64,000 nucleotides of DNA, from NCBI GenBank assembly GCA_050950825.1, contig JBMNIH010000010.1:128001-192000 (forward strand). Reading direction: 5' to 3'. The position numbers were made by a program, and so were the translations under genes. Numbering within the stretch: the stretch's first letter is position 1; each line of letters starts with the position of its first letter. Source of the stretch: Clostridia bacterium (GTDB lineage Bacteria; Bacillota; Clostridia; JAAYHZ01). The notes beneath the pieces were generated by a model. It did no database searches and had not been told where the DNA came from. It was given only the letters and a program-made list of their open reading frames with translations. This document shows positions 49,756 through 64,000 of this stretch, in pieces.

Positions 49756-51236
49756 GTGATAGACGAACAAACGATCAAGGAGATGGAGATTACAACGGAA
49801 AATATAAAAGCGGTGTTTAAAGACCAAGACGATGTTATGTACAAGGATGCCTTTATTCGAGGTGAGCCTGAGTTAAGAGCGGATTTGGTGTATGTGGACG
49901 GAATGGCCGACGTATCCTCCATTAACGAGGATATCATCAAGCCTTTAAATGAAAATCCGGTATTTCAGCGTGTAAACACGCAGGAGGAGGCTTACGAAGC
50001 CGCCGTAAACGGCGGTATTTATCACGGCTCCATGGTGATGTTAAAAGACATGGAGGAGCTGGTAAGTACCCTTCTTTTCGGTTTTACGGTGGTCGTTTTC
50101 GACGGTATTAAAAAGGCGATTGCTTTTGAGACCAAAGGTTTTAAGTATCGGTCGGTTACGGCGGCACAAGAAGAGAATACGTATAAATCTCCGAAAGATG
50201 CCTTTGTTGAAAACATTCGGGTAAATGTCTCGTTAATTCGACAAAAAATCATCAGCCGTCATTTGGCCGTTAGCGAATTGGATGTAGGTACATTAAGCAA
50301 CACCCCATGCAGCATTTTGTATATGAGCAATATCTGCAACGAAGAGTTCGTTGAAATCATAAAAACAAGGTTGAAGAATATGAAGCAGGAAGACGCCCTG
50401 TCCATGCAGGATGTATATGAAAGCTTGGTGGAACACAAGTATACCATGTTTCCTCAGGCGAAAAGTACGGAAAGCTCATCGATAGTGTGTTCTTCATTAA
50501 TGGAAGGAAAAGTGGCGGTTTTGATAAACGGCATACCTTACGCATTGATTTTCCCGATGGTGTTCGGCGATTTATTTAATTCTTCCTTTGATTACAACAT
50601 CAATTTCGCTTTGGCAAGCTTCTTTCGTATTATGCGTTATGCAAGCTTTTTGTTTACCCTTCTTCTTCCCGGGATTTATGTTGCCATTGCGGAATTTCAC
50701 CCGGAAATGATTCCTTTCGCTTTGTTAAATGCCATCGGCGCCGCGAAAGCGGGAACACCCTTCAATACGGTTCTTGAAATACTGATTATGAGCTTTACTT
50801 TTTACGTATTAATCCAAGTAAGCATGCAGGTACCCACCTCCATGGGCTCCGCCGTATCTATCGTAGGAGGTATTGTGTTAGGACAGGCGGCGGTTCAAGC
50901 ACAGCTGGTATCTCCCGGCGTCATTGTGGTTATTGCCGCCGCGTCCATTGCCGCCTTGGCCATTCCCAACAAGGATGCCAATTTTGCGGTATGGATATGG
51001 CAAGGCTTTATTACCATACTGACCTCCGTGTTCGGATTATACGGCTTATCCGCAGGATTCATATTGTTCCTTTACTGTCTGGCACGATTGGAGTCTTTAG
51101 GCGTTCCTTATCTGTCGCCCTATATCCATCCTCCAAAATGCAGCCCGAAGATTCCTTTATTCGTTTTCCCCTTACCGATATTCAATACCGGCCGATCTAT
51201 TTAAAGCCGAAAGAAAAGGAAAGGAAAAAGAAATGA
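49756..51236 (+). CDS. spore germinant receptor A subunit (GerA family; apparent 1-nt deletion at about 51126)
   Basis: PKDAFVE, FPQ, FHPEMIP, SIVGGIVLGQAAVQA, GVPYLSP; the typical DSFIRFP...RP tail is in the -1 frame and ends at 51236. Confidence 0.9.
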
Positions 51237-52405
51237 AGAAGAAACGATTGATTGTTATGCTTTCCTTGCTTCTTTTTTTGACCGGGTGCAGCAGCTTGCC
51301 CCATAAAATACCCTTAGAAGATATCCAAGCCATCTTAATTGCCGGTATCGATGTGAACGAGGGTATGGTGGAGCTGACCGTCATGAGCGTGGGTAGCCAA
51401 CCGGGATCCGGTGACAAGAAGGGAGAGGAAGCGATAAAAATTTACGAAGCGACCGGAAAAACGGTGTTTGAAGCCAAGCAGAACTTAAGCTTGTATAACG
51501 ATAAGCACTTAATATGGGCTCATTTGGAATATATCATAATCGGAGAGGATACGGCTCGAGCGGGGATCGCACCCCATTTGGATTTTTTCTTAAGGCATCA
51601 TGAAAACCGTTTGACGGACGATCTTATCGTAGCGAAAAATATGACGGCAAGAGAGTTCATACGTTCGACGGACACGGCTCAGCCGAAGATAAATGAAAAA
51701 ATACGCCATTTGTTTAAGGATGCGGAAATCAAATCCACCATCCGTAATGTGAATTTAAAGACTTGGGCGTTAAAACATCTTTCGGACACCATGTACGTCA
51801 TTTTGCCCGTTTTAAGTACAACGGAAAGAACGCATAAAGAAAAAGAACAACAAGAAGAGGGCACTCAAAAAAAAGATATTCGGACCGACGGATATGCCGT
51901 ATTTAATCGAGAAGGAAAACTGATTGATTATGCTTCCTTGGAGTATTCCCGAGGGATCAATTGGATTACCGATGAAATTCATTCCACGGCGGTGGTAATC
52001 GAACCGGAATCCGGAGCCCAATTATCCGCACAAATCATACGATCAAAAACCAAATTGGAAATAGACGAAGAAGCCGTATCTTTGAATGTGGATATTAGCT
52101 TGATATTCAATATTCCGGAATACACGGGCAATAAGGAACTGTACGATTTGGAATACGTAGGGTTAATCAAAGGAAAGCTGGAGGATATGATCGAAAAAGA
52201 AGTGATCGATACGGTAAAATACTTGCAAAGCTTGGATGCCGATGCCATTAATATCGGTAATGTCTATTACCATAAATATCCGAAAAGGTGGCCCATGATG
52301 AAAGATATGTGGGAAGAGAAATTCAGGCAAATGAACGTGAACGTAAGCGTTAGGTCTACCTTAAGAAATACGTATAACATCCTTAACCCCATGGAGAAAG
52401 AGTGA
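51233..52405 (+). CDS. spore germinant receptor C subunit lipoprotein (Ger(x)C)
   Basis: LTGC lipobox, AGID, GKTVFEA, HLEYIIIGE, LDFFLR. Confidence 0.92.
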   Translation: MKKKRLIVMLSLLLFLTGCSSLPHKIPLEDIQAILIAGIDVNEGMVELTVMSVGSQPGSGDKKGEEAIKIYEATGKTVFEAKQNLSLYNDKHLIWAHLEYIIIGEDTARAGIAPHLDFFLRHHENRLTDDLIVAKNMTAREFIRSTDTAQPKINEKIRHLFKDAEIKSTIRNVNLKTWALKHLSDTMYVILPVLSTTERTHKEKEQQEEGTQKKDIRTDGYAVFNREGKLIDYASLEYSRGINWITDEIHSTAVVIEPESGAQLSAQIIRSKTKLEIDEEAVSLNVDISLIFNIPEYTGNKELYDLEYVGLIKGKLEDMIEKEVIDTVKYLQSLDADAINIGNVYYHKYPKRWPMMKDMWEEKFRQMNVNVSVRSTLRNTYNILNPMEKE

Positions 52406-52409
52406 TTGT

Positions 52410-52616
52410 ATGGTCCTTGTGTTGGTTCTTTTAATCGGTTTAAGTATTTATGACATCCGATTGTTGAAAAAAGAAAACGACAAAAAGCAGATGATTATGT
52501 ATTGTATTTTTGCACTGGCGACCTTGGCCTTCGGAATATGGTATATCACCGGAACCATCGAACACAGCTTCTGTTATGAATTGTTTCACCTTTTGGGAAT
52601 TAGCGATAGAAACTGA
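52410..52616 (+). CDS. small two-TM membrane protein (germinant-receptor D-subunit-like)
   Basis: Two hydrophobic helices, 4 nt downstream of gerC. Confidence 0.6.
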   Translation: MVLVLVLLIGLSIYDIRLLKKENDKKQMIMYCIFALATLAFGIWYITGTIEHSFCYELFHLLGISDRN

Positions 52617-52724
52617 TAAAAATTTATCAAGTACCTTTTCATCTCCATTTGAATATGATATACTTGGGTTTATCGTTAAACAATGAATTTCAATTTTGGC
52701 TTATAAATCCGGGAGGTGAAAAGA

Positions 52725-52847
52725 ATGGAGTCAGGCGGAAGTAGTTCCGGCAGTGGAGGTATACGATTACGTATAAAGAAAAAGGCACCGAAGGAGTCTC
52801 CTTTGGCTCTGTTCTTTTGTGCTTCTTGTATTTGCCATGTCGGTTAA
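52725..52847 (+). CDS. putative leader peptide (uORF) of mgtE, 40 aa
   Basis: Strong SD GGAGGTGA; MESGGSSSGSGGIRLRIKKKAPKESPLALFFCASCICHVG; extended -10 TGATATACT at about 52656-52664. Confidence 0.55.
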   Translation: MESGGSSSGSGGIRLRIKKKAPKESPLALFFCASCICHVG

Positions 52848-52989
52848 CCTCTTTTCTTTTATACGTTTTCAATCGATTCTTTCGCTGTCCCTGCCTAACC
52901 GTTATACGGAAAGTATTATGAAATAAAGCAAAAAAGCGTTTTGCTTTATCGGAATTTTTTTGCTTAAAAAATGAAAGGAGGACAGCCCC

Positions 52990-54324
52990 ATGAGTGAATG
53001 GATTTTGGATTTAATTAATAGAAATAAATATGCCGAAGTCCGAAACATGCTTATTGAAATGAACGTGGTGGACATCGCTCAGATCGTAGAAGAAATCGAT
53101 AAGGATAAGCTTTTAATCCTGTTTCGCATATTGCCGAAGGAAATGGCGGCAGGAGTTTTTTCATACATACCGTCGGAGCTTCAGGAGTTTATTGTCGAAT
53201 CCATTACGGATAAAGAAATCAAAAATATTATCGATACTTTGTTTCTTGACGATGCCGTCGACTTTTTGGAAGAAATGCCGGCGAATGTGGTCAAGAGGGT
53301 TTTAAGAAACACGGATCCCGAAACGAGAAAGCTGATCAATCAATTTTTGAATTATCCGGAGGATTCCGTCGGCAGCATCATGACCATCGAATTTGTGGAC
53401 TTAAAGAAGGAAATGACGGTCCGCGAAGCGATTCAACACGTAAAGGAAACCGGGGTGGATAAAGAAACCATTGACAATTGTTATGTTCTGGATAACAACC
53501 GTATTTTGGAAGGCGTCATATCCATCCGTAAGCTGATTTTAAGCGACGATAACGAAAAGCTAGAGGACATCATGGAAACGGATATCAAGTCGGCGAACAC
53601 CCACGACCACCGAGAAGTTTTGGTGTCCCTGTTCAAAAAGTATGACTTGCTATCGCTGCCGGTGACGGATAACGAATACCGTTTGGTAGGGATTGTTACC
53701 GTTGACGACGTAGTCGACATTATGGACCAAGAAGCTACGGAAGACTTTCAATTGATGGCAGCCATGCAGCCCTCGGAAAAGGAATATTTGAAAACCGGCG
53801 TACTGGAGTTGGCTAAAAACCGTATTTTTTGGCTTCTAATTTTAATGATTTCCGCTACATTTACAGGAAGTATTATTAGCAAGTACGAAGATGCACTGCA
53901 AGCGGTGGTGATACTTGCATCCTTTATTCCCATGATTATGGATACCGGTGGTAATTCCGGTGCTCAGTCGTCTACCATGATTATTCGAGGTCTCGCATTA
54001 GGAGAAGTAAAACCAAATGATATTTTAAAAGTGATTTGGAAAGAGCTAAGAGTCGGTATTTTAGTGGGAATTGTTTTATCTTCCGTTAATTTTATAAGGC
54101 TTTTAGTCCTTGTGAAGGTAGATACTTTTATCGCTTTAACCGTAAGTATAACCTTGATGCTTACTGTGGTTGTAGCAAAGCTTGTGGGAGGAACGCTCCC
54201 CTTAGCCGCTAAGAAGGTAAAGCTGGATCCGGCCATCATGGCGAGTCCTTTGATTACAACCATTGTGGACGCCGTTGCCCTTTTGCTGTATTTCCGATTT
54301 GCAACAATTTTGTTGGGGATATAA
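52990..54324 (+). CDS. mgtE: magnesium transporter MgtE
   Basis: N domain, CBS pair (YPEDSVGSIMT), GGNSGAQS, DPAIMASPLITTIVD. Confidence 0.96.
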   Translation: MSEWILDLINRNKYAEVRNMLIEMNVVDIAQIVEEIDKDKLLILFRILPKEMAAGVFSYIPSELQEFIVESITDKEIKNIIDTLFLDDAVDFLEEMPANVVKRVLRNTDPETRKLINQFLNYPEDSVGSIMTIEFVDLKKEMTVREAIQHVKETGVDKETIDNCYVLDNNRILEGVISIRKLILSDDNEKLEDIMETDIKSANTHDHREVLVSLFKKYDLLSLPVTDNEYRLVGIVTVDDVVDIMDQEATEDFQLMAAMQPSEKEYLKTGVLELAKNRIFWLLILMISATFTGSIISKYEDALQAVVILASFIPMIMDTGGNSGAQSSTMIIRGLALGEVKPNDILKVIWKELRVGILVGIVLSSVNFIRLLVLVKVDTFIALTVSITLMLTVVVAKLVGGTLPLAAKKVKLDPAIMASPLITTIVDAVALLLYFRFATILLGI

Positions 54325-54331
54325 AAAAGTG

Positions 54332-54361
54332 TTGACATGGAGGCTTTGTTCGTCATATAAT
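54332..54361 (+). promoter_or_regulatory. sigma-A promoter of the aro operon
   Basis: TTGACA-N18-TATAAT. Confidence 0.85.
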
Positions 54362-54390
54362 ATCCTAAATTTATTAAGAGGTAAGGTTTT

Positions 54391-54516
54391 ATGGAAACTT
54401 ATCGCCCGGAAAGAAGAATAAAGTTAAATTTGAATAGCTACTTTAGCTTCTTTACCTATGCCTTTTTTGCGTTTTATTTCTTTTTCTTTAGAACCGGGCG
54501 AATCGTAAGACCTTAG
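54391..54516 (+). CDS. Phe/Tyr-rich attenuator leader peptide, 41 aa
   Basis: SD GAGGT; METYRPERRIKLNLNSYFSFFTYAFFAFYFFFFRTGRIVRP (10 Phe, 4 Tyr). Confidence 0.8.
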   Translation: METYRPERRIKLNLNSYFSFFTYAFFAFYFFFFRTGRIVRP

Positions 54517-54534
54517 GTTTTGGTTAAGAAAATC

Positions 54535-54568
54535 AAAGCGGGAGGCGGATTCAGCCCCCCGCTTTTTT
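54535..54568 (+). terminator. attenuator terminator before aroF
   Basis: AAAGCGGGAGGC-loop-GCCCCCCGCTTTTTT. Confidence 0.85.
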
Positions 54569-54672
54569 GATACATCCGGTTCGGATCTTCGTCAAAACCG
54601 GTTGCCCAAAAAACAGGGGGAGTCGAATCGAAAAAAGCCTTCCGAAAGATAATAAGTGAAGGAGGACACCCC

Positions 54673-55680
54673 ATGATATTAGTTTTAAAAACCAATGTGG
54701 AAGAAAAGAAGATCGAGGAATTGATCCGGACGTTAGAAAGCAGTCAAATACGTGTGGAAAGAACCAAAGGCGTGGACTACACCATTTTGGCGTTAATCGG
54801 CGATACACGGTCGGTTAATGAAGGGACCATACTCAATTCCGACATTGTTCACCGAATCATTCATGTACAAGAACCGTACAAGCAAGCGAATCGGCTTTTC
54901 CATCCGGAGAATACGACGGTCAAAGTAGGCGACTGCACCATCGGAGGAGGAGAATTTGCCGTTATTGCAGGTCCTTGCTCCGTAGAAAGCGAGGAACAGA
55001 TTTTGACCGTTGCACGGGAAGTAAAAAAATCCGGAGCAAAATTCTTACGAGGCGGCGCATACAAACCTCGAACATCCCCCTACAGCTTCCAAGGATTAGG
55101 GGAGCGGGGATTGGATTTGCTCAAGCTGGCAAAGGAAGAAACCGGCTTGCTGATTGTCTCGGAAATATTGTCAACGGACCAATTGGACCGTTTTGTCCGG
55201 GATGTGGACATCATCCAAGTAGGCGCTCGAAACATGCAGAATTTTTCCTTGTTAAAAGAACTGGGTAGGGTCCAAAAACCGGTTATTTTAAAGAGGGGAA
55301 TGTCGGCCACCATGGAGGAATGGCTTATGTCGGCGGAGTATATTATGGCGGAGGGGAATAAAAACGTCATTTTGTGCGAAAGAGGAATAAGAACATTCGA
55401 AACCTACACCCGCAACACCTTCGATATCAGCGCCATACCCATGATTAAGCACTACAGCCATTTGCCCATAATCGCCGACCCCAGCCACGCGACAGGAAGG
55501 TGGTGGATGGTAGAGCCTTTGGCAAAAGCGGCGGTAGCGGCGGGAGCCGACGGACTCATGGTAGAGGTGCATCCGAATCCGGAAAAAGCTCTATCCGACG
55601 GAGCACAGTCTTTAACCCTCGAAAGCTATAAAAAATTAATGAATGAAATTAATTTAATGATCGGAAAATTGGCGTGTTAA
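54673..55680 (+). CDS. aroF: DAHP synthase, type I-beta with N-terminal regulatory domain
   Basis: [46 protein letters not shown]. Confidence 0.95.
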
Positions 55681-55715
55681 AATACGGATATACGGTCTTT
55701 GATGAGGATATGAAC

Positions 55716-56786
55716 ATGAAGGAATTGAATTTAACGGCAACAGACAGCCGTTCCGTGATATTAATTGAAGAAGGGCTGCTGCATCGATTACCGGAGCTTG
55801 TAAGGAACCTGTTTCCTTTGTCTAAGGTTTTAATCGTGACCGACGAAAACGTGGAGAAGCTATACGGCAAAAGCGTTTATGAATCCTTGGCACGCTCCGG
55901 CATCCCTTGCGTCAAAAAGGTATTGCCTTTCGGGGAGAGGACAAAATCCTTTGAATACTTGAATATAATCTTGGATTGCTTGGGAGAAAACGGCTTTACG
56001 AGAAGCGATGCGGTAATGGCCTTAGGAGGAGGAGTCATAGGAGACTTATCCGGCTTTGCCGCCGCCTTATGGCAAAGGGGAATGAAATTAATCCAAGCTC
56101 CGACAACCCTTCTGGCCCAGATTGACAGCAGCATCGGAGGAAAGACCGCCATTGACACCAAATGGGGGAAAAACACGATAGGCGCTTTCAAGCAGCCGGA
56201 CTTGGTTTGCATCGACCCTCAAGTCTTGACAACCCTTTCGAAAACGGACTTTTCGGCCGGTATGGCGGAAATGATCAAGTATGCCTGCATTCGCGACAAA
56301 GAGATGTTCCGTATTTTAAAAACGCATTCGGACAATATATTCCCGCACCTTTCGGAGCTCATTCTTCAAGCATGCAAGATTAAGAAAGAGGTTGTGGAAG
56401 AGGATTGCTTTGATACGGGATTACGTATGATTTTAAATTTCGGCCATACCGTCGCCCATGTTTTGGAAGGGCTGAACGATTTCGAGGGCTTGCCTCACGG
56501 GTATGCAGTGGCTTTGGGTATGATCGACATAACCAAGCGGTCGGAAGCCCTCGGGTGGACTCTTTCCGGAACGGCGGATCAAATACAAAAGCTGTGTGAC
56601 GCCTACGGACTTCCTACGGAAATGCCTGCGGTAGACAAGAGAGCGGCCGTTTCCTTTTTGTTAAGAGATAAAAAAGCCAGAAGCGGTCAAATGAATTTGG
56701 TGTTGTTAAAAGAAATCGGTTCCTGCTTCATTAAAAAGATGGACGTAGGGGATGCGATACAATTTCTCGGTTGGGAGGAAAAATGA
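55716..56786 (+). CDS. aroB: 3-dehydroquinate synthase
   Basis: GGGVIGDL, PTTLLAQIDSSIGGKT, LNFGHT, HGYAV, DKK. Confidence 0.96.
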   Translation: MKELNLTATDSRSVILIEEGLLHRLPELVRNLFPLSKVLIVTDENVEKLYGKSVYESLARSGIPCVKKVLPFGERTKSFEYLNIILDCLGENGFTRSDAVMALGGGVIGDLSGFAAALWQRGMKLIQAPTTLLAQIDSSIGGKTAIDTKWGKNTIGAFKQPDLVCIDPQVLTTLSKTDFSAGMAEMIKYACIRDKEMFRILKTHSDNIFPHLSELILQACKIKKEVVEEDCFDTGLRMILNFGHTVAHVLEGLNDFEGLPHGYAVALGMIDITKRSEALGWTLSGTADQIQKLCDAYGLPTEMPAVDKRAAVSFLLRDKKARSGQMNLVLLKEIGSCFIKKMDVGDAIQFLGWEEK

Positions 56787-58054
56787 TGCAGGTTACCGTT
56801 TATCCTTCAAAGTTAAAAGGAACCCTTTTTGTGCCTCCTTCGAAAAGCCAAGCCCACCGTCTGTTATTGGCGGCGGTACCGTCAAAGGAACCTTGTGTCA
56901 TTGATTCCGTCGCTTTCTCCGATGATATATCGGCAACCGTCGGAGCCATGGAGGCATTGGGTAAAAAAATCGATATGAAAAAAGGTGATTTCGAATATCG
57001 TTTGACGGTTCAAGAGGGAACTTTGACAAAAAACCCCGTGATAAATTGCAAAGAATCCGGTTCCACCTTACGCTTTGCCATTCCCTTGGCGCTTGCCGTA
57101 GCCGGCGAAGCGACATTTACGGGGGAGGGCCGTTTGGGGGAAAGGCCTTTGAACGTTTACAAGGATTTGCTTGAGAAACAGGGTATTTTATGGGAAGCGG
57201 ATGTTAAAGGACTGCCTTTACACGTTAAAGGCGAATTGATGCCGGGTATTTATTCGGTTCCGGGCGATATCAGCTCTCAATTTATTACGGGGCTGTTGCT
57301 GGCGCTTCCTTTGCTTAAAGGGGATTCGGTGCTTACGATTGAAGGCGTACTTGAATCGGCGCCTTACGTGGACATAACCGTCGACGTGTTAAAAAAATAC
57401 GGTGTCCGCATCACGGAAGAGGAACCGTACCGAATTTACCGAATTCCGGGAGGTCAAACCTTCGGGAACGTGAACGCCATGGTGGAGGGGGACTGGTCCC
57501 AAGCCGCTTTTTATATATTGAGCGGATTATTCGGAAACGGCGTATTGCTAAAAGGATTGGATAAAGATTCATACCAGGGGGATAAAAGGATCGTTTTCTT
57601 TTTACGTTCCATGGGAGGAGATATCCGATGGACGGATGAAGGACTAATGGCGTACCCTTCGGAATTAAAAGGTGTCGACATGGATATTTCCCATTGCCCG
57701 GATTTGGCTCCGGTGTTGGCGCTGGCTTGTTCTGTAGCAAAAGGATGCAGCCGCATATCGGGAGCAAAAAGGCTTCGGATTAAAGAATCCGACCGCATCG
57801 AATCCGTGGGAAACACATTGAAGGCTTTAGGTGCGAAGATAGAATGCTTGGACGACGGATTTTTCATTGAGGGATCCGAAGCTTTAAACGGCGGCAAGGT
57901 CTTTTCGTATAAAGATCACCGAATTGCCATGATGGCGGCTGTTGCCGCTTGCGTATCCGAAGAGCCGATTGTGCTGGAAGGAGCGGAAGCCGTTAAAAAA
58001 TCGTATCCGAACTTTTGGGAGGATTACAAAATGCTTGGAGGGATCGTAGAATGA
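56783..58054 (+). CDS. aroA: EPSP synthase
   Basis: PPSKS, ESGSTLRF, SSQF, LRIKESDR, DHRIAM, KSYPNFW. Confidence 0.96.
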   Translation: MMQVTVYPSKLKGTLFVPPSKSQAHRLLLAAVPSKEPCVIDSVAFSDDISATVGAMEALGKKIDMKKGDFEYRLTVQEGTLTKNPVINCKESGSTLRFAIPLALAVAGEATFTGEGRLGERPLNVYKDLLEKQGILWEADVKGLPLHVKGELMPGIYSVPGDISSQFITGLLLALPLLKGDSVLTIEGVLESAPYVDITVDVLKKYGVRITEEEPYRIYRIPGGQTFGNVNAMVEGDWSQAAFYILSGLFGNGVLLKGLDKDSYQGDKRIVFFLRSMGGDIRWTDEGLMAYPSELKGVDMDISHCPDLAPVLALACSVAKGCSRISGAKRLRIKESDRIESVGNTLKALGAKIECLDDGFFIEGSEALNGGKVFSYKDHRIAMMAAVAACVSEEPIVLEGAEAVKKSYPNFWEDYKMLGGIVE

Positions 58055-59133
58055 GCAGCCAATGGGGTCAAAAATTGAAAATATTTTTATTCGGGGAATC
58101 CCACGGAGACGGAATCGGCGTGGTGATGGACGGTGTTCCGCCCGGCATCAAGCTGGATATGTCTTTTATACGAAGGGAAATGGAAAGGCGGTCCCCGGGA
58201 AGGCACCGATGGTCCACGCAACGTAAGGAAGCGGATGCTCCCGTTATCCTAAGCGGAGTGTACAACGAGCATACCACGGGTACTCCCTTATGCGCCGTTA
58301 TATACAACAAAGACCAAAGATCCCAAGATTACAAAAAGCTTGACCGGATACCGCGGCCCGGCCATGCCGATTACACCGGTTCTATTCGTTATAAGGGGTT
58401 TAACGATCCGAGAGGAGGAGGCCACTTCTCGGGGCGATTGACGGCGCCTTTGGTTTTCGCGGGGGCCGTAGCCCAGCAAATCTTGCATAAAGAAGGTATA
58501 TACGTAGGCGCCCATATTAACAGAATCGAACAGGTAACGGACCGGGAGATTGACAAGACGAACATTTCCGTGGAAATGATTCAAAATTTAAAAGCGAAGG
58601 ATTTTCCCGTTATGGATGATGAAGCGGGAGAGCAAATGAAGGATAGAATTTTGAACGCCTTCAACGGCTTGGACTCCGTAGGAGGGGAAATTACGACGTT
58701 TGCCGTAGGCGTTCCTGCGGGAATCGGAAGCCCAATTTTCGATGCTTTGGAAAGCAAGATTGCGTCCTTGGTCTTTTCCGTACCGGCGGTAAAAGGTCTT
58801 TCTTTCGGTACCGGATTCGATTTGGCTCTTATGAGAGGAAGCGAGGCGAATGATCCGTTCCGGATGGAAGGAGAAAAGGTTGTTACTTTGACCAACCATA
58901 ACGGAGGCATTTTGGGAGGCATCTCCAACGGTATGCCCATTGTTTTTAAGGCCGTAATCAAGCCCACCGCATCCATTGCCTCCGTTCAAAAGACCGTCAA
59001 TCTTTCCACAGGGGAAAACTGCGATATTTCGATTCACGGAAGGCACGACCCTTGTATTGTGCCGCGAGGAGTACCGGTGATGGAAGCCTGTATGGCTTTG
59101 GCGCTTGCGGATGCGATTTTGTATGAAAGGTAA
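58051..59133 (+). CDS. aroC: chorismate synthase
   Basis: GESHG, RPGHAD, GGGHFSGRLT, NGGILGG, GRHDPCI. Confidence 0.96.
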   Translation: MSSQWGQKLKIFLFGESHGDGIGVVMDGVPPGIKLDMSFIRREMERRSPGRHRWSTQRKEADAPVILSGVYNEHTTGTPLCAVIYNKDQRSQDYKKLDRIPRPGHADYTGSIRYKGFNDPRGGGHFSGRLTAPLVFAGAVAQQILHKEGIYVGAHINRIEQVTDREIDKTNISVEMIQNLKAKDFPVMDDEAGEQMKDRILNAFNGLDSVGGEITTFAVGVPAGIGSPIFDALESKIASLVFSVPAVKGLSFGTGFDLALMRGSEANDPFRMEGEKVVTLTNHNGGILGGISNGMPIVFKAVIKPTASIASVQKTVNLSTGENCDISIHGRHDPCIVPRGVPVMEACMALALADAILYER

Positions 59134-59143
59134 GGGATGATAA

Positions 59144-59980
59144 GTGAAAGTGGGGTATATGGGCGTTCCCGGTTCCTATACCGAGGAAGCGGCCGTCGGT
59201 TATTTCAAAAACGAATACGAATTAACGGGTTATCCGAGTTTTCACGATGTTGTCCATAGGTTGGAAACCAAGGAAATTCGTTACGGGATTCTGGCAATCG
59301 AGAACTCTTCCACCGGAAGCGTTCATCAAACCTTGGATTTAATACGAGAAAAAAACCTCTACATCACGGGAGAAGCCATACAAAAGGTGGAGCATTATTT
59401 AATGGCGGTAAAGGGGTCAAAGCTGTCCATGATCAAAAAGGTGATTTCCCATCCCCAAGGCTTGGAGCAGTGCGGCAGCTATATTCGTAAAAACGGCTGG
59501 GAAATCGGGACCCATGTCAACACCGCCGCTGCGGCAAAAGAAGCGGCTCAAAAAAACGATCCTTACACGGCGGTTATCGCATCGAAACGGGCGGCAAGCA
59601 TTTACGGGTTGGAAATATTGGACGAAAAAATTCAAGACAACAATCATAACTACACGCGATTTGTGGTTTTGTCCGGCACAAAAGAAATCACGGAAGGAGC
59701 GGACAAAATCAGCTTGGTTTTTATCGTAAAAAACGTTCCCGGATCCTTGTATGCCGCCATTCAAGGCTTTGCCGAAAACGGAGTGAACTTGATAAAGCTG
59801 GAATCAAGGCCGATATGGGGCGAGCCTTGGCATTACTTTTTCTTCATGGACTTGGAAGGAAGCTTGGAGGACGAAAGAATTAAAAGAGCCCTTTCCTATT
59901 TGGAGATTCACTGCAAGTCCTATCGAATATTGGGAAACTACAAAAAAGCGTCTTTTTCCATGGAGGTAAAAAATGAATAA
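59144..59980 (+). CDS. pheA: prephenate dehydratase with ACT domain (no chorismate mutase domain)
   Basis: GSYTE, IENSSTG, SHPQ, NYTRF, KLESRP. Confidence 0.93.
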   Translation: MKVGYMGVPGSYTEEAAVGYFKNEYELTGYPSFHDVVHRLETKEIRYGILAIENSSTGSVHQTLDLIREKNLYITGEAIQKVEHYLMAVKGSKLSMIKKVISHPQGLEQCGSYIRKNGWEIGTHVNTAAAAKEAAQKNDPYTAVIASKRAASIYGLEILDEKIQDNNHNYTRFVVLSGTKEITEGADKISLVFIVKNVPGSLYAAIQGFAENGVNLIKLESRPIWGEPWHYFFFMDLEGSLEDERIKRALSYLEIHCKSYRILGNYKKASFSMEVKNE

Positions 59981-60791
59981 CAAATACGGACTTATCGGGT
60001 ATCCTTTAGGCCACAGCTACTCTCCTTGGATACACGATGCCATATTCCGGCTTACCGGTCGGAAAGGAGAATATTCCCTCATCGAGATTACGGAGGATCA
60101 AATCCCTTCCTTTTTTGAAAAGCTGCATCGAAGCGGTTTGGAGGGCTTGAACGTTACCATACCCTACAAGCAAAGGGTCATACCGTACATGGACGAAATG
60201 TCCTCCGAAGCCCAAAGGATCGGTGCCGTAAATACGATTTTGATAAAAGAGGACCGCTTGATCGGGTATAACACCGATTATATCGGATTTATGGAGCTTC
60301 TTTCTACCTTATGCGATGACTTATCCGGTAAAAAGGTGCTGATTCTAGGAGACGGCGGCTCCGCAAGAACGGTATATACCTGTATGTGCGATTTAAAGGT
60401 GTCCGTATGCTATATGGCGTCAAGGAAACCTAAGAAAAGCCGAATGCTTTTTAAGGAAGCATTCGTCATTTCCTATGAGGAGGTATACGATTTGTCGGAC
60501 CTATATTTAACGGTGAATTGTACCCCGGTGGGCATGTATCCGAAGAAAGACGCATCTCCTTTGGATTTGGATAGAATAAAGCCTTTTCCGTATTACGTCG
60601 ATTTAATTTACAACCCTTCCGAGACCTTGCTGATGAAGCATGTGAACCGGACGGGAGGAAAAAGCGTAAACGGACTCTATATGCTGGTGTCTCAAGGCGT
60701 TGCCGCCCAGGAAATATGGACAAACCGGACAATTCCCAAGGATATAACGCAAAAAGTATTTCAAATAATGAAAGAGGAAAAGTCGCTATGA
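59973..60791 (+). CDS. aroE: shikimate dehydrogenase
   Basis: GHSYSP, NVTIPYK, GAVNT, NTD, DLIYNP, GLYMLVSQ. Confidence 0.95.
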   Translation: MNNKYGLIGYPLGHSYSPWIHDAIFRLTGRKGEYSLIEITEDQIPSFFEKLHRSGLEGLNVTIPYKQRVIPYMDEMSSEAQRIGAVNTILIKEDRLIGYNTDYIGFMELLSTLCDDLSGKKVLILGDGGSARTVYTCMCDLKVSVCYMASRKPKKSRMLFKEAFVISYEEVYDLSDLYLTVNCTPVGMYPKKDASPLDLDRIKPFPYYVDLIYNPSETLLMKHVNRTGGKSVNGLYMLVSQGVAAQEIWTNRTIPKDITQKVFQIMKEEKSL

Positions 60792-61222
60792 AAATATTGG
60801 TTTTAAACGGACCGAATTTAAACATGTTGGGTGTGCGAGAGCCGGATATTTACGGAAAAGAAAATTATGCTTCCTTGTGTAAAACGGTGGAGGACGAAGC
60901 GAAAAGATTAGGAATTCAGGTGGATATAAGGCAGAGCAACCATGAAGGTCAGCTGGTGGATTGGATTCAGGAGGCTTTCGGTGTTTTTGACGGAATCGTA
61001 ATCAACCCCGCCGCCTATACCCACTACAGCATTGCCATCTTGGACGCCTTAAAGGCCGTGGGTTTGCCTGCCGTGGAGGTTCACATCAGCGACATCCATA
61101 AAAGGGAAGACTTCCGAAAACATTCCGTCACCGCACCCGCTTGCATCGGGCAGATCAGCGGCAAAGGAATATACGGATATGTTTTAGGCATTCGGATGTT
61201 GTATGACCATATTAACGGATAA
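60788..61222 (+). CDS. aroQ: type II 3-dehydroquinate dehydratase
   Basis: NGPNLNMLG.REP..YG, QSNHEG, INPAAYTH, EVHIS, REDFR. Confidence 0.96.
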   Translation: MKILVLNGPNLNMLGVREPDIYGKENYASLCKTVEDEAKRLGIQVDIRQSNHEGQLVDWIQEAFGVFDGIVINPAAYTHYSIAILDALKAVGLPAVEVHISDIHKREDFRKHSVTAPACIGQISGKGIYGYVLGIRMLYDHING

Positions 61223-61260
61223 AAAGGTGCCGGATTTCTTTTATCCGACACCTTCGCTTT
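61223..61260. terminator. bidirectional terminator between aroQ and fabZ
   Basis: AAGGTGCCGGAT...ATCCGACACCTT stem. Confidence 0.65.
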
Positions 61261-61684
61261 ATTCGGATATGGCAAACATTAAAGAACACTCCGCCACAAG
61301 CTCGCCGTCAACCGTAGCCCTACCATTCCCAATGCCTATGTTTCCCATAATATTTTCGATTTCGGTTTCAAGGATTAACAGGTCTCCGGGAACCACTTTG
61401 CGTACGAATTTGGCGTTTTTTATTCTGCCTAAGAAAGCAAGCTTTCCCTTCATCTCATCCATGGTCATCAGCGCCACCGCTCCGGTCTGGGCGAGGGCCT
61501 CTAAAATCAATACTCCGGGCATCACCTTTACGTCCTTGAAATGACCTGCAAAAAACCACTCGTTTCCGCTGACGGCTTTTCGAGCCGTTGCGGATTTTCC
61601 GACCTTCAGTTGGTCTACGCGATCAATCATTAAAAAAGGTTCTCGGTGAGGCAGTATTTCCTTTATCTGTTCAATTCCAAGCAA
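61259..61684 (-). CDS. fabZ: 3-hydroxyacyl-ACP dehydratase
   Basis: LPHREPFLMIDR, GHF, MPGVLILEALAQ, VVPGD. Confidence 0.96.
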   Translation of the reverse strand: MLGIEQIKEILPHREPFLMIDRVDQLKVGKSATARKAVSGNEWFFAGHFKDVKVMPGVLILEALAQTGAVALMTMDEMKGKLAFLGRIKNAKFVRKVVPGDLLILETEIENIMGNIGIGNGRATVDGELVAECSLMFAISE

Positions 61685-61686
61685 CT

Positions 61687-62922
61687 TTATTCTCCCTTTC
61701 TAATCAAAAGCGTACTGTTGTGCCCCCCGAAGCCGAAGGAATTGGACAAAGCATATTCCGTGTTCATGGGACGAGCTTTGCCTTTGACGTAGTCCAAGTC
61801 GCATCCTTCTCCTTCCTTGATCAAGCCGATAGTAGGAGGAGCCATTCCGGCCTCCAGGGCCTTCACCGTTAGCAACGCTTCGACGGCACCTGCGGCACCC
61901 AGCATATGGGCCGTCATGGACTTGGTGGAGCTGACCAACAGCTTTTTGCTGTGCTCTCCGAAGCATTTTTTAATGGCATTGGTTTCGATAATGTCGTTTA
62001 AAGGAGTTCCGGTACCGTGAGCGTTGATGTAACCTATTTGTTCTTTATCAATGCCGGCTTCTAATATGGCCAACTCCATGGCTCTTGCTGCCCGGATTCC
62101 TTCAGGCATAGGGGCGGTTACGTGGTACGCATCGCATGTTTGACCGAAGCCGACAATTTCACCGTAAATTTTGGCGTTTCGTCTTTTAGCCGATTCTTCG
62201 CTTTCCAGCAACAAGAAAGCCGCTCCTTCTCCCATGACAAAGCCTTGTCGTTCTTCGTCAAAAGGAATGCATGCTCTTTTAGGATCCTTGCTTTCCGATA
62301 ACGCCTGCATTTGATGAAAGCCTTGCACGGCCAAATCCGTTAATACCGCTTCGGATCCTCCCGCCAAAGCGGCATCCAATCGGCCGTCCTTTATGGCGTA
62401 GTAGGCGTGGCCAATGGCATCCGTACCGGAGGAGCATGCCGAAACGACGGCGAAACAAGGTCCTTGCAGCGAAAGCTTGATGGCGATATTCCCCGCAGCA
62501 ATGTTGATGATGCTTTTGGGAATGAAGATAGCCGATACACCGATCGGACCTTGGCTCATCAGCAGGCGGTCTTGTTCGCATATGGTTTCCAAGCCCCCCA
62601 TGCCGCTTCCCAATACGACACCGACACGGTTTTTATCCAAATCGCCGTCATGTATACCGGCGTCATTCCAAGCTTCAAAAGCCGCCGCGAGGGCAAATTG
62701 TGTGAATAAATCCAACCGTTTCGCTTCTCTTTTGCTGACGGGTAAAACCGATTCAAAGTCTTTTACTTCTCCTGCAGCGGTTATACCCGTTTTTTCGGTG
62801 TCAAATTTTGTTGCGACATCGATGCCGCAAACACCTTCTACAGCCGATTGAAATGCGGTACTTGCATTGTTACCGATAGGGCAAACGGTCCCTAAACCGG
62901 TAATCATAACTCGATGCTTCAT
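61687..62922 (-). CDS. fabF: beta-ketoacyl-ACP synthase II
   Basis: SACSSG, DAYHVTAP, NAHGTGT, HMLGAAG, NSFGFGGHN. Confidence 0.95.
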   Translation of the reverse strand: MKHRVMITGLGTVCPIGNNASTAFQSAVEGVCGIDVATKFDTEKTGITAAGEVKDFESVLPVSKREAKRLDLFTQFALAAAFEAWNDAGIHDGDLDKNRVGVVLGSGMGGLETICEQDRLLMSQGPIGVSAIFIPKSIINIAAGNIAIKLSLQGPCFAVVSACSSGTDAIGHAYYAIKDGRLDAALAGGSEAVLTDLAVQGFHQMQALSESKDPKRACIPFDEERQGFVMGEGAAFLLLESEESAKRRNAKIYGEIVGFGQTCDAYHVTAPMPEGIRAARAMELAILEAGIDKEQIGYINAHGTGTPLNDIIETNAIKKCFGEHSKKLLVSSTKSMTAHMLGAAGAVEALLTVKALEAGMAPPTIGLIKEGEGCDLDYVKGKARPMNTEYALSNSFGFGGHNSTLLIRKGE

Positions 62923-62973
62923 ATGATTCATTCTCCTCAATTTCCAATAAAATCACACGCTTACTTCATGCGT

Positions 62974-63708
62974 TTATATAACCATGCCGCCGTCTACGAC
63001 AATCACCTGTCCCGTTATATACGAGGCGGCGTCACTGCACAAAAAAGCTACCACGCCGGCCACATCCGAAGGAGTGCCGAAGCGTTTCAAGGGGATACGG
63101 TCGAGCATATTCTTTTTAATGTCTTCGGGCAAAACATCGGTCATCGGCGTTTGGATGTATCCAGGAGCAACCGTATTAACGCAGATTCCTCTTCGAGCCG
63201 CTTCTTTTGCTACGGATTTACCGAATCCGATTATGGCGGCCTTGGATGCGGCGTAATTGGCTTGCCCGATGTTACCGGTAATGCCTACAACCGACGATAT
63301 GTTGATGATTCGACCTTGCCTTGCTTTCACTAAATGAGAAAGGGCTTCACGAGTGCAGTAAAAGCAGCTGTTCAGATTGGCTTTCATGACTTTTTCGAAT
63401 TGTTCGTCTTCCATTCTCATTAAAAGTGCGTCGTCGGTGATTCCGGCATTGTTAATCAAGGCATATAATCCTCCTAGCTCAAAGACGCAGGATTCCACAA
63501 CATTCTTGCAGTCATCGGATCCGGACAAGTCGCCTTTTAGCAAGGCGGCTCTTCTTCCTAAGCTTCCGATTTCGTTATATAGGCTTTTGGCTTGCTCTTC
63601 ACCGCTTCTGTAGTGGATGCCGATATCAAAACCGGATTTGGCAAGGGTTAATGCGATTTCTCTTCCGATGCCTCCGGATGCGCCGGTAACCAATGCAACC
63701 TTTGTCAA
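62974..63708 (-). CDS. fabG: 3-oxoacyl-ACP reductase
   Basis: [38 protein letters not shown]. Confidence 0.95.
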
Positions 63709-64000
63709 CTTTCCTCACTTCCTTTACCTTGAATGCGGGACAATTCCAAGAGCATCGCCGCATTCTTTTCGAACAAACGATGATCGAATAAATCTCTCAC
63801 AATCTCCTCGGTGGTCTGTACGGAATCCAAAAGACAGGCGCATTGGCCGGACATGAAGGAACCGTTTTTTAAGTCCCCCTCTAAAACGGCTCTGCGAAGA
63901 GACCCTTCTCCTAATTTTTCGATCTGTTCGGCTCCGTTATCCGTATACTCCAGCTGTAGCATTCTTCTGCATAAGTCGTTACGAAGCAGGCGAACCGGAT
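63705..64000 (-). CDS. fabK: enoyl-ACP reductase FabK, C-terminal part (5' end outside the window)
   Basis: PVRLLRN..., [18 protein letters not shown]; fab operon context. Confidence 0.85.

Follow-up and report, generated by a model that had tools for sequence, protein, structure and literature searches.

What controls transcription into the aroF-aroB-aroA-aroC-pheA-aroE-aroQ operon of a Clostridia bacterium? The question was addressed at the leader-bearing intergenic region flanked by mgtE (52990-54324) and aroF (54673-55680), which lies in a 64,000-nt stretch of contig JBMNIH010000010.1 (GenBank assembly GCA_050950825.1, positions 128,001 to 192,000 of the forward strand). The whole of this stretch is called the window below, and coordinates are counted from its first letter. 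The region holds a promoter, a short upstream open reading frame (uORF) rich in Phe codons and an intrinsic terminator. From its sequence, it is likely to be a ribosome-mediated (leader-peptide) transcription attenuator of the operon, in which the uORF and the terminator would very probably let the ribosome turn the aromatic genes on at Phe shortage.

Anatomy of the leader

The leader comprises the following elements.

54332-54361 (+): sigma-70-type promoter, with TTGACA at 54332-54337, an 18-nt spacer and TATAAT at 54356-54361 (12/12 consensus matches).
54378-54381 (+): Shine-Dalgarno (SD) sequence GAGG of the leader open reading frame (ORF), read from the sequence; the ATG at 54391 starts 9 nt later.
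54391-54516 (+): leader ORF of 41 codons plus stop, translated as METYRPERRIKLNLNSYFSFFTYAFFAFYFFFFRTGRIVRP.
54439-54489 (+): regulatory tract of 17 codons, 10 of them Phe (7 TTT, 3 TTC) and 3 Tyr.
54535-54568 (+): intrinsic terminator, with hairpin 54535-54565 (-18.6 kcal/mol), loop GGATTCA at 54547-54553 and T6 at 54563-54568.

The stop codon of the uORF is followed after 19 nt by the terminator, and a spacer of ~100 nt separates the terminator from aroF. No Trp codon occurs in the leader ORF. An earlier, sequence-only reading of the stretch had described the consensus promoter, the SD, the 41-codon ORF, which lacks Trp and has 13 Phe/Tyr codons in a 17-codon stretch, and the terminator; all were recovered where it had placed them. 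Promoter-like sites were found five times in 53500-55500, with a 12/12 match only at 54332-54361.

The aromatic tract was compared with the rest of the window in six frames. Thirteen Phe and Tyr residues within a stop-free run of 17 occurred in the leader tract alone; the next-best 17-residue stretch held 10 and lay antisense within a 465-aa ORF, where the aromatic-rich frame at ~12728 (+) was discarded as noise. When the 3.55-Mb genome was scanned for aromatic leaders, 26 stop-free frames were returned, among which the aroF leader was the only convincing intergenic one; the other frames scoring 9/12 (n = 6) were inspected and leader anatomy was seen in none.

Positions 52000-64000 were searched with cmscan against all 4227 families of Rfam 15 at E ≤ 10. 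Six chance-level rows were returned, with no leader family and no T-box among them, in agreement with the earlier statement that the leader lacks a T-box. The leader families of Rfam include Phe_leader and the Lactococcus leu/phe leader.

Two explanations that would detach these elements from aro regulation, a functional small hydrophobic (membrane) peptide encoded by the ORF or a hairpin that serves as the mgtE terminator, are highly improbable. An aromatic stretch of 17 residues could span a membrane, and no separate terminator for mgtE, which ends at 54324, precedes the hairpin. Against the peptide, the hydrophobic stretch is without Leu, Ile or Val and the N-terminal half is poorly conserved; against the mgtE terminator, a perfect promoter stands between mgtE and the hairpin. 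The order uORF, terminator, aroF also recurs in genomes with a different upstream gene.

Conservation within the order

The genome of the window (G000) and two others (G001 and G002) make up the whole of its GTDB order, and the leader was found in 3/3 of them. The leader peptides are METYRPERRIKLNLNSYFSFFTYAFFAFYFFFFRTGRIVRP in the window and MDTNCPAVKLNAMFNNFQSFFSFGFFAFYFFTTGRIGKP and MLTCLPTIKLNALYMFRSFFCFGFFAFFKFTTGRIRTP in the relatives. In the three-genome alignment both promoter hexamers, the sequence GAGGTA and the ATG were invariant. The sole indel within the leader frame was 6 nt long and in frame, and Phe/Tyr interchanges and synonymous changes were tolerated. Also invariant in all three genomes were a block in the Phe tract, TTTTTTGCGTTTT; the block ACCGGGCGAATC, which encodes T-G-R-I and was kept at third positions as well; and the terminator stem with loop letters GATTCA. 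Third codon positions of aroF, taken at identical residues in the same three genomes, were only 42-52% identical. Given the kept frame and the invariant blocks against this background, the leader is under selection for its reading frame as well as for its RNA. The leader-peptide attenuator proposed in the sequence-only reading is thereby strengthened, its promoter, SD, Phe-rich frame and terminator being kept throughout the order.

Several leader blocks are conserved as nucleotides, down to the third codon positions, which would also suit a terminator governed by an RNA-binding protein, a small-molecule-binding RNA or a tRNA; the Phe-rich frame would then be incidental to a conserved element of U-rich RNA. 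This alternative is very unlikely. The SD is conserved at a proper distance from a conserved ATG, the indel preserves the frame, Phe and Tyr replace one another, and the residues enriched in the leader are exactly the end products of the operon. The Rfam search, in which the T-box was included, gave no match for the leader.

Predicted RNA structures

Three further segments would take part in the switch.

54402-54409 (+): region 1, TCGCCCGG, predicted to pair with region 2 if the ribosome is absent; present in the minimum free energy (MFE) fold.
54494-54504 (+): region 2a, CCGGGCGAATC (codons T-G-R-I), with either region 1 or the terminator loop and upper 3' arm as its predicted partner.
54511-54525 (+): region 2b, made up of the Pro codon, the stop and the 9 nt that follow; when only RNA 3' of a stalled ribosome is folded, its predicted partner in the proposed ON state is the 5' arm of the terminator.

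The whole-leader fold scored z = -3.45 against shuffles. In the MFE fold, TCGCCCGG at 54402-54409 is paired to CCGGGCGA at 54494-54501, and the stop-codon region is the partner of the SD/start region. The 1:2 helix of the sequence-only reading was thus recovered, with a duplex energy of -17.8 kcal/mol in the window and -14.6 and -17.4 kcal/mol in the two relatives; 83% of its cells in the alignment were paired, and changes were one-sided only.

In the proposed mechanism, these pairings would be made when no ribosome is present, the terminator would form and transcription would stop. A leader left untranslated through loss of its ATG should, on this model, terminate constitutively. With Phe plentiful, the ribosome would reach the stop codon and cover regions 2a and 2b, and the terminator would form again. 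With charged tRNA-Phe scarce, it would stall within 54439-54486, which would leave 2a and 2b free and parted from region 1. The freed GGGCGAAUC (54496-54504) could then pair with GAUUC-A-GCCC (54548-54557), and 54511-54525 with the 5' arm of the terminator. Because this anti-terminator would be in place before the 3' arm is complete, RNA polymerase is proposed to read through into aroF.

The outer helix of the anti-terminator, formed with the terminator loop and upper 3' arm, has 9 bp and one bulge (-14.0 kcal/mol). In G001 it has 11 bp, two more, because the flanking letters differ on both strands. In the helix between region 2b and the 5' arm, the CC:GG pairs were kept in 3/3 genomes and the remainder differs between them. 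Stalling was modeled by folding only the RNA 3' of the ribosome (first free base at A-site +13), in transcripts ending 4-7 nt into the 3' arm. The MFE structure of these truncated transcripts was the composite anti-terminator (outer helix plus 54511-54525 with the 5' arm; about -22 to -25 kcal/mol) at 11 of the 13 Phe/Tyr A-site codons; at the twelfth it was partial and at the thirteenth it was lost. The terminator nucleated once the ribosome had left the tract, and the pattern was alike in the three genomes. Compared with dinucleotide shuffles, the anti-terminator complementarity was significant in both relatives (p = 0.015 for G002 and p = 0.010 for G001).

The particular anti-terminator proposed, with GGGCGAAUC paired to the loop and upper 3' arm of the terminator, is grounded in conservation and could act only kinetically; we give it even chances. 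Loop invasion of the terminator is one way in which it may work, a style of anti-termination suggested by the invariant loop being complementary to region 2. Besides its role in RNA pairing, the invariant T-G-R-I-x-x-Pro-stop tail may be a programmed slow-termination signal that holds the ribosome on region 2 and so enforces termination.

The sequence-only reading had given a different 2:3 helix, between about 54482-54495 and 54516-54532. This pairing appeared in some folds; it is impossible in G001, and its 5' strand consists of regulatory codons. Taken as the anti-terminator of an otherwise unchanged attenuator, this helix has the U-rich Phe tract (~54460-54495) paired with the A-rich spacer and 5' arm (54516-54546). 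That helix is the MFE structure of transcripts ending before the 3' arm if the 1:2 helix is broken and the tract is free of ribosomes, and a similar one was predicted in G002 for stalls at early codons. With its 5' strand made of the regulatory codons, a stalled ribosome would block the helix and termination would follow in starvation, the wrong logic. G001 has no A-rich spacer with which to form it, and pairing of a U-rich with an A-rich segment is expected from composition alone. With the ribosome upstream of the tract (A-site positions 59-68), the U-tract helix behaved as an anti-anti-terminator, the free tract taking up region 2b while the terminator nucleated. As the anti-terminator of this leader it is unlikely.

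Several results weigh against the attenuator, or at least against the pairing scheme proposed for it. When the full transcript was folded with a 31-nt ribosome mask and pairs spanning the ribosome were allowed, terminator probability was 1.00 at all ribosome positions. A thermodynamic switch is excluded by these equilibrium folds, and since the full terminator is always more stable, any switch must be kinetic; that the folds predict no ribosome-dependent switch also speaks for a terminator governed by protein, small molecule or tRNA. The model makes the usual assumption that a ribosome keeps the RNA on either side of it from pairing; region 1, 30 nt ahead of the first regulatory codon, falls outside a single stalled ribosome. 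The anti-terminator duplex of the window itself was no better than shuffles (z = -0.4, p = 0.325). In the three-genome alignment, no both-sided pair changes were found in the 1:2 helix, the terminator or the anti-terminator; the nine outer anti-terminator pairs were invariant, which neither supports nor refutes the pairing. The two close metagenome matches were identical to G001 and G002, so the collections searched hold only three distinct sequences of this sub-family. Metatranscriptome assemblies labeled biogas fermenter, activated sludge, compost and bioreactor sludge (runs X1-X4) contained short, low-depth contigs with at least 99% identity to 54200-56200, which places the organism or a near-identical strain in those libraries. 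The contigs cover 54200-54468 and parts of aroF, with none over 54469-54607; as contigs cannot show RNA ends or levels, they are uninformative for attenuation.

Operon content and the amino acid probably sensed

The genes downstream of the leader are as follows.

54673-55680 (+): aroF, DAHP synthase with an N-terminal ferredoxin-like regulatory domain (Pfam DAHP_synth_1, 1e-82; DAHP_snth_FXD, 6.6e-15).
55674-61222 (+): aroB, aroA, aroC, pheA (PDT+ACT), aroE and aroQ (Pfam DHQ_synthase, EPSP_synthase, Chorismate_synt, PDT+ACT, Shikimate_dh_N and DHquinase_II).

The seven genes are tightly packed or overlapping and are therefore taken as one operon. The sequence-only reading had called it a whole shikimate operon; this holds for 6/7 enzymes of the common pathway, with pheA in addition, and fails for shikimate kinase, which is encoded elsewhere in the genome, as are chorismate mutase and tyrA. 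The operon would close with an ORF of 113 aa (61203-61544, +) that overlaps the tail of aroQ and had no Pfam match at E ≤ 0.01.

A second DAHP synthase of 337 aa, with FXD and DAHP_synth_1 domains like those of aroF, is encoded on the minus strand at ~622.4-624.6 kb of G000:C4 (L166, 907-3053, minus) and overlaps tyrA (PDH_N+PDH_C+ACT) by stop/start. The ~190-nt leader of this pair (L166, 3054-3250, minus) has a TG-extended -10 element; no aromatic uORF, T-box, meaningful Rfam match or obvious SD was found in it.

The leaders of the two relatives hold 10 and 9 Phe codons and one Tyr codon each, at differing positions. With pheA in the operon and tyrA elsewhere beside the second DAHP synthase, we read the leader as sensing mainly charged tRNA-Phe, with tRNA-Tyr a minor input. 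The sequence-only reading had favored dual sensing of Phe and Tyr, a view that the relatives' single, shifting Tyr codon and the separate placing of pheA and tyrA weaken.

T-boxes (RF00230) were matched 14 times in the genome, 10 of them above the cut-off and none at the aroF leader. From the N-termini of the ORFs downstream, read by eye, these seem to precede ileS, leuA, valS, tyrS, trpE, two trpB-like genes, serS, proS, metS, thrS, ilvN and a PaaK-like ligase. The T-boxes at trpE, the trpB-like genes and tyrS, as identified by this N-terminal reading, fit the lack of Trp codons in the aroF leader. Labor appears to be split in this genome, with the Phe-rich leader assigned to the common pathway and pheA, T-boxes seemingly controlling the Trp genes and tyrS, and the second DAHP synthase set apart with tyrA. 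One T-box (G000:C10:194230-194488) lies just past the window end.

Aromatic uORFs at other Bacillota aroF loci

Aromatic uORFs were sought at 78 aroF loci of Bacillota, each with 250 nt or more of sequence upstream. At a threshold of at least 7 aromatic residues in 12, a uORF was found at 37/78 loci, against 4/78 on the reverse strand and 7/390 in shuffles; at 8 or more in 12, the counts were 25/78, 0/78 and 3/390. A hairpin with a T-run preceded aroF at 35 of the 37 loci with an aromatic uORF, compared with 19 of the 41 below threshold. The window leader matches a widespread arrangement (35/78 loci), an aromatic uORF and a terminator directly upstream of aroF, and the F/Y-rich uORFs that the sequence-only reading suggested looking for in related genomes proved to be present throughout the order and strongly enriched across the phylum. 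Together with these loci, the window leader shows aromatic leader peptides before aroF to be common in Bacillota (37/78 sampled).

Many of the loci (L004-L037, L071; e.g., L017 1181-1410 and L006 1227-1452) share the uORF core ..WGFYFFSAGYFAWKK.., encoded by a 54-nt core at the nucleotide level (TGG GGC TTY TAY TTT TTT AGC GCT GGN TAT TTT GCA TGG AAA AA). Also common to them is an RNA word, UCUAAUGAG(U), whose complement, (G)ACUCAUUA, lies in the top and loop of the terminator. The two strands of this pairing change jointly in L006 (UUUCUAAGA with UCUUAGAAA), and the uORF stop codon of L009 falls inside the word. When the word:terminator duplex was tested against shuffles, it was significant in only 5/13 loci. 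These leaders use GGC for every Gly and AGC for every Ser, which favors a conserved RNA element with the frame as its by-product, whereas the strand- and frame-specific aromatic enrichment over the 78 loci argues for translation.

The window leader resembles the widespread leaders in its position before aroF, its aromatic uORF, its terminator and, near the end of the uORF, a segment complementary to the terminator's top and loop; by eye only, FFSFGFFAF of the three genomes lines up with FFSAGYFAW of the widespread core. It differs in having no Trp codons, in its region-2 word (GGGCGAAUC rather than UCUAAUGAG) and in its terminator sequence. An nhmmer profile of the 54-nt core, built from 14 loci, had no match to the window leader in a genome-wide search at E ≤ 10, nor in the 350-nt leader with --max, and the trio was therefore not placed in the widespread family. 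A scan of 20 Bacillota loci at the Rfam gathering threshold gave nothing at the aroF leaders.

It is conceivable, though doubtful, that aromatic leader-peptide attenuators form an uncatalogued set running through the whole phylum Bacillota, of which this leader would be a branch specific to its lineage. If so, ribosome-timed attenuation of biosynthetic operons would be common in a phylum thought to rely on T-boxes and TRAP and to let transcription run ahead of translation.

Comparison with described systems

The leader is probably a further case of textbook attenuation, in a little-described version. Like enterobacterial pheL-pheA and trpL-trp, it has a short leader rich in product codons and a terminator before the first structural gene, and ribosome position would select between alternative helices, an untranslated leader giving termination by default. 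It differs from them in its greater length (41 codons) and its mixture of Phe and Tyr codons, in a regulatory target that would comprise the common shikimate pathway together with pheA rather than pheA alone, in a region 1 that lies upstream of the regulatory codons rather than overlapping them, and in the proposed anti-terminator, which would pair with the terminator loop and 3' arm besides the 5' arm.

In Corynebacterium glutamicum, according to the summary given in PMC11802643, transcription of the aroF operon behind the experimentally studied aroR leader rises at Phe limitation and Tyr is without effect (Neshat et al., 2014); aroR is also described for this species by Mentz et al. (2013; PMC4046766). 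By description rather than by sequence, aroR shares with the window leader Phe and Tyr codons ahead of a DAHP synthase operon. It belongs to Actinobacteria and, in the same accounts, has only a Phe-Tyr-Phe triplet in place of 13 codons; its reported response to Phe and not to Tyr matches the mainly Phe-sensing reading of the window leader.

Within Bacillota, the motif uORFC-13-1 was reported upstream of aroF with 24 representatives, from Acholeplasma and environmental sequences only; in the view of its authors, the rate at which Phe is incorporated would drive attenuation (Brewer et al., 2021; PMC8632094). It shares with the window leader a promoter, a ribosome-binding site, a uORF with a Phe-coding U run and an adjacent intrinsic terminator before aroF. 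The motif was absent from Rfam 15 as searched.

Attenuators with His leaders were predicted for members of the Bacillus cereus group, Peptostreptococcaceae and Erysipelotrichales (PMC9413887). The shared feature is a predicted classical attenuation of a biosynthetic operon in Firmicutes lineages without the usual T-box or repressor; they differ in responding to histidine, not aromatic amino acids, and their sequences are unrelated. Ribosome-mediated attenuation, with NusG-dependent pausing, is proven for Bacillus subtilis resistance genes (PMC6851288, PMC4191407). Among aminoacyl-tRNA synthetase genes of Firmicutes, none is known to use classical attenuation, according to Seliverstov et al. 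(2005; PMC1262725).

A full-text literature search returned no paper on an aroF leader peptide in Clostridia, and for Bacillota the Acholeplasma case only. The suggestion in the sequence-only reading that the attenuator is possibly undescribed in its group is only partly true, given the published Acholeplasma aroF uORF and Corynebacterium aroR leader, the His-leader attenuators predicted in Clostridia and the ribosome-mediated attenuation of Bacillus subtilis resistance genes. A single further example of a textbook mechanism is of modest interest. With no Rfam model, and only the Acholeplasma case found in print for the phylum, genome annotation and regulon reconstruction miss the aroF leaders.

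Minor features of the region

A simple terminator scanner reported the hairpin of the aroF leader on the minus strand only, since three residues of the T run are paired to AAA. The uORF contains five TTNTTT words, the NusG pause motif of Bacillus subtilis; their density was reached in 831 of 63873 equally long windows and is unremarkable.

In the spacer downstream of the terminator (54575-54672, +), GCCTTCC is able to pair with the aroF SD (GAAGGAGG) in G000 and G002, and not in G001. A spacer fold that would mask this SD was considered and rejected, as it was no better than shuffles (z = -0.59).

Upstream of mgtE, the window carries GerA and GerAC spore-germination genes (49756-52405, +), from which the organism is taken to be a spore-former.

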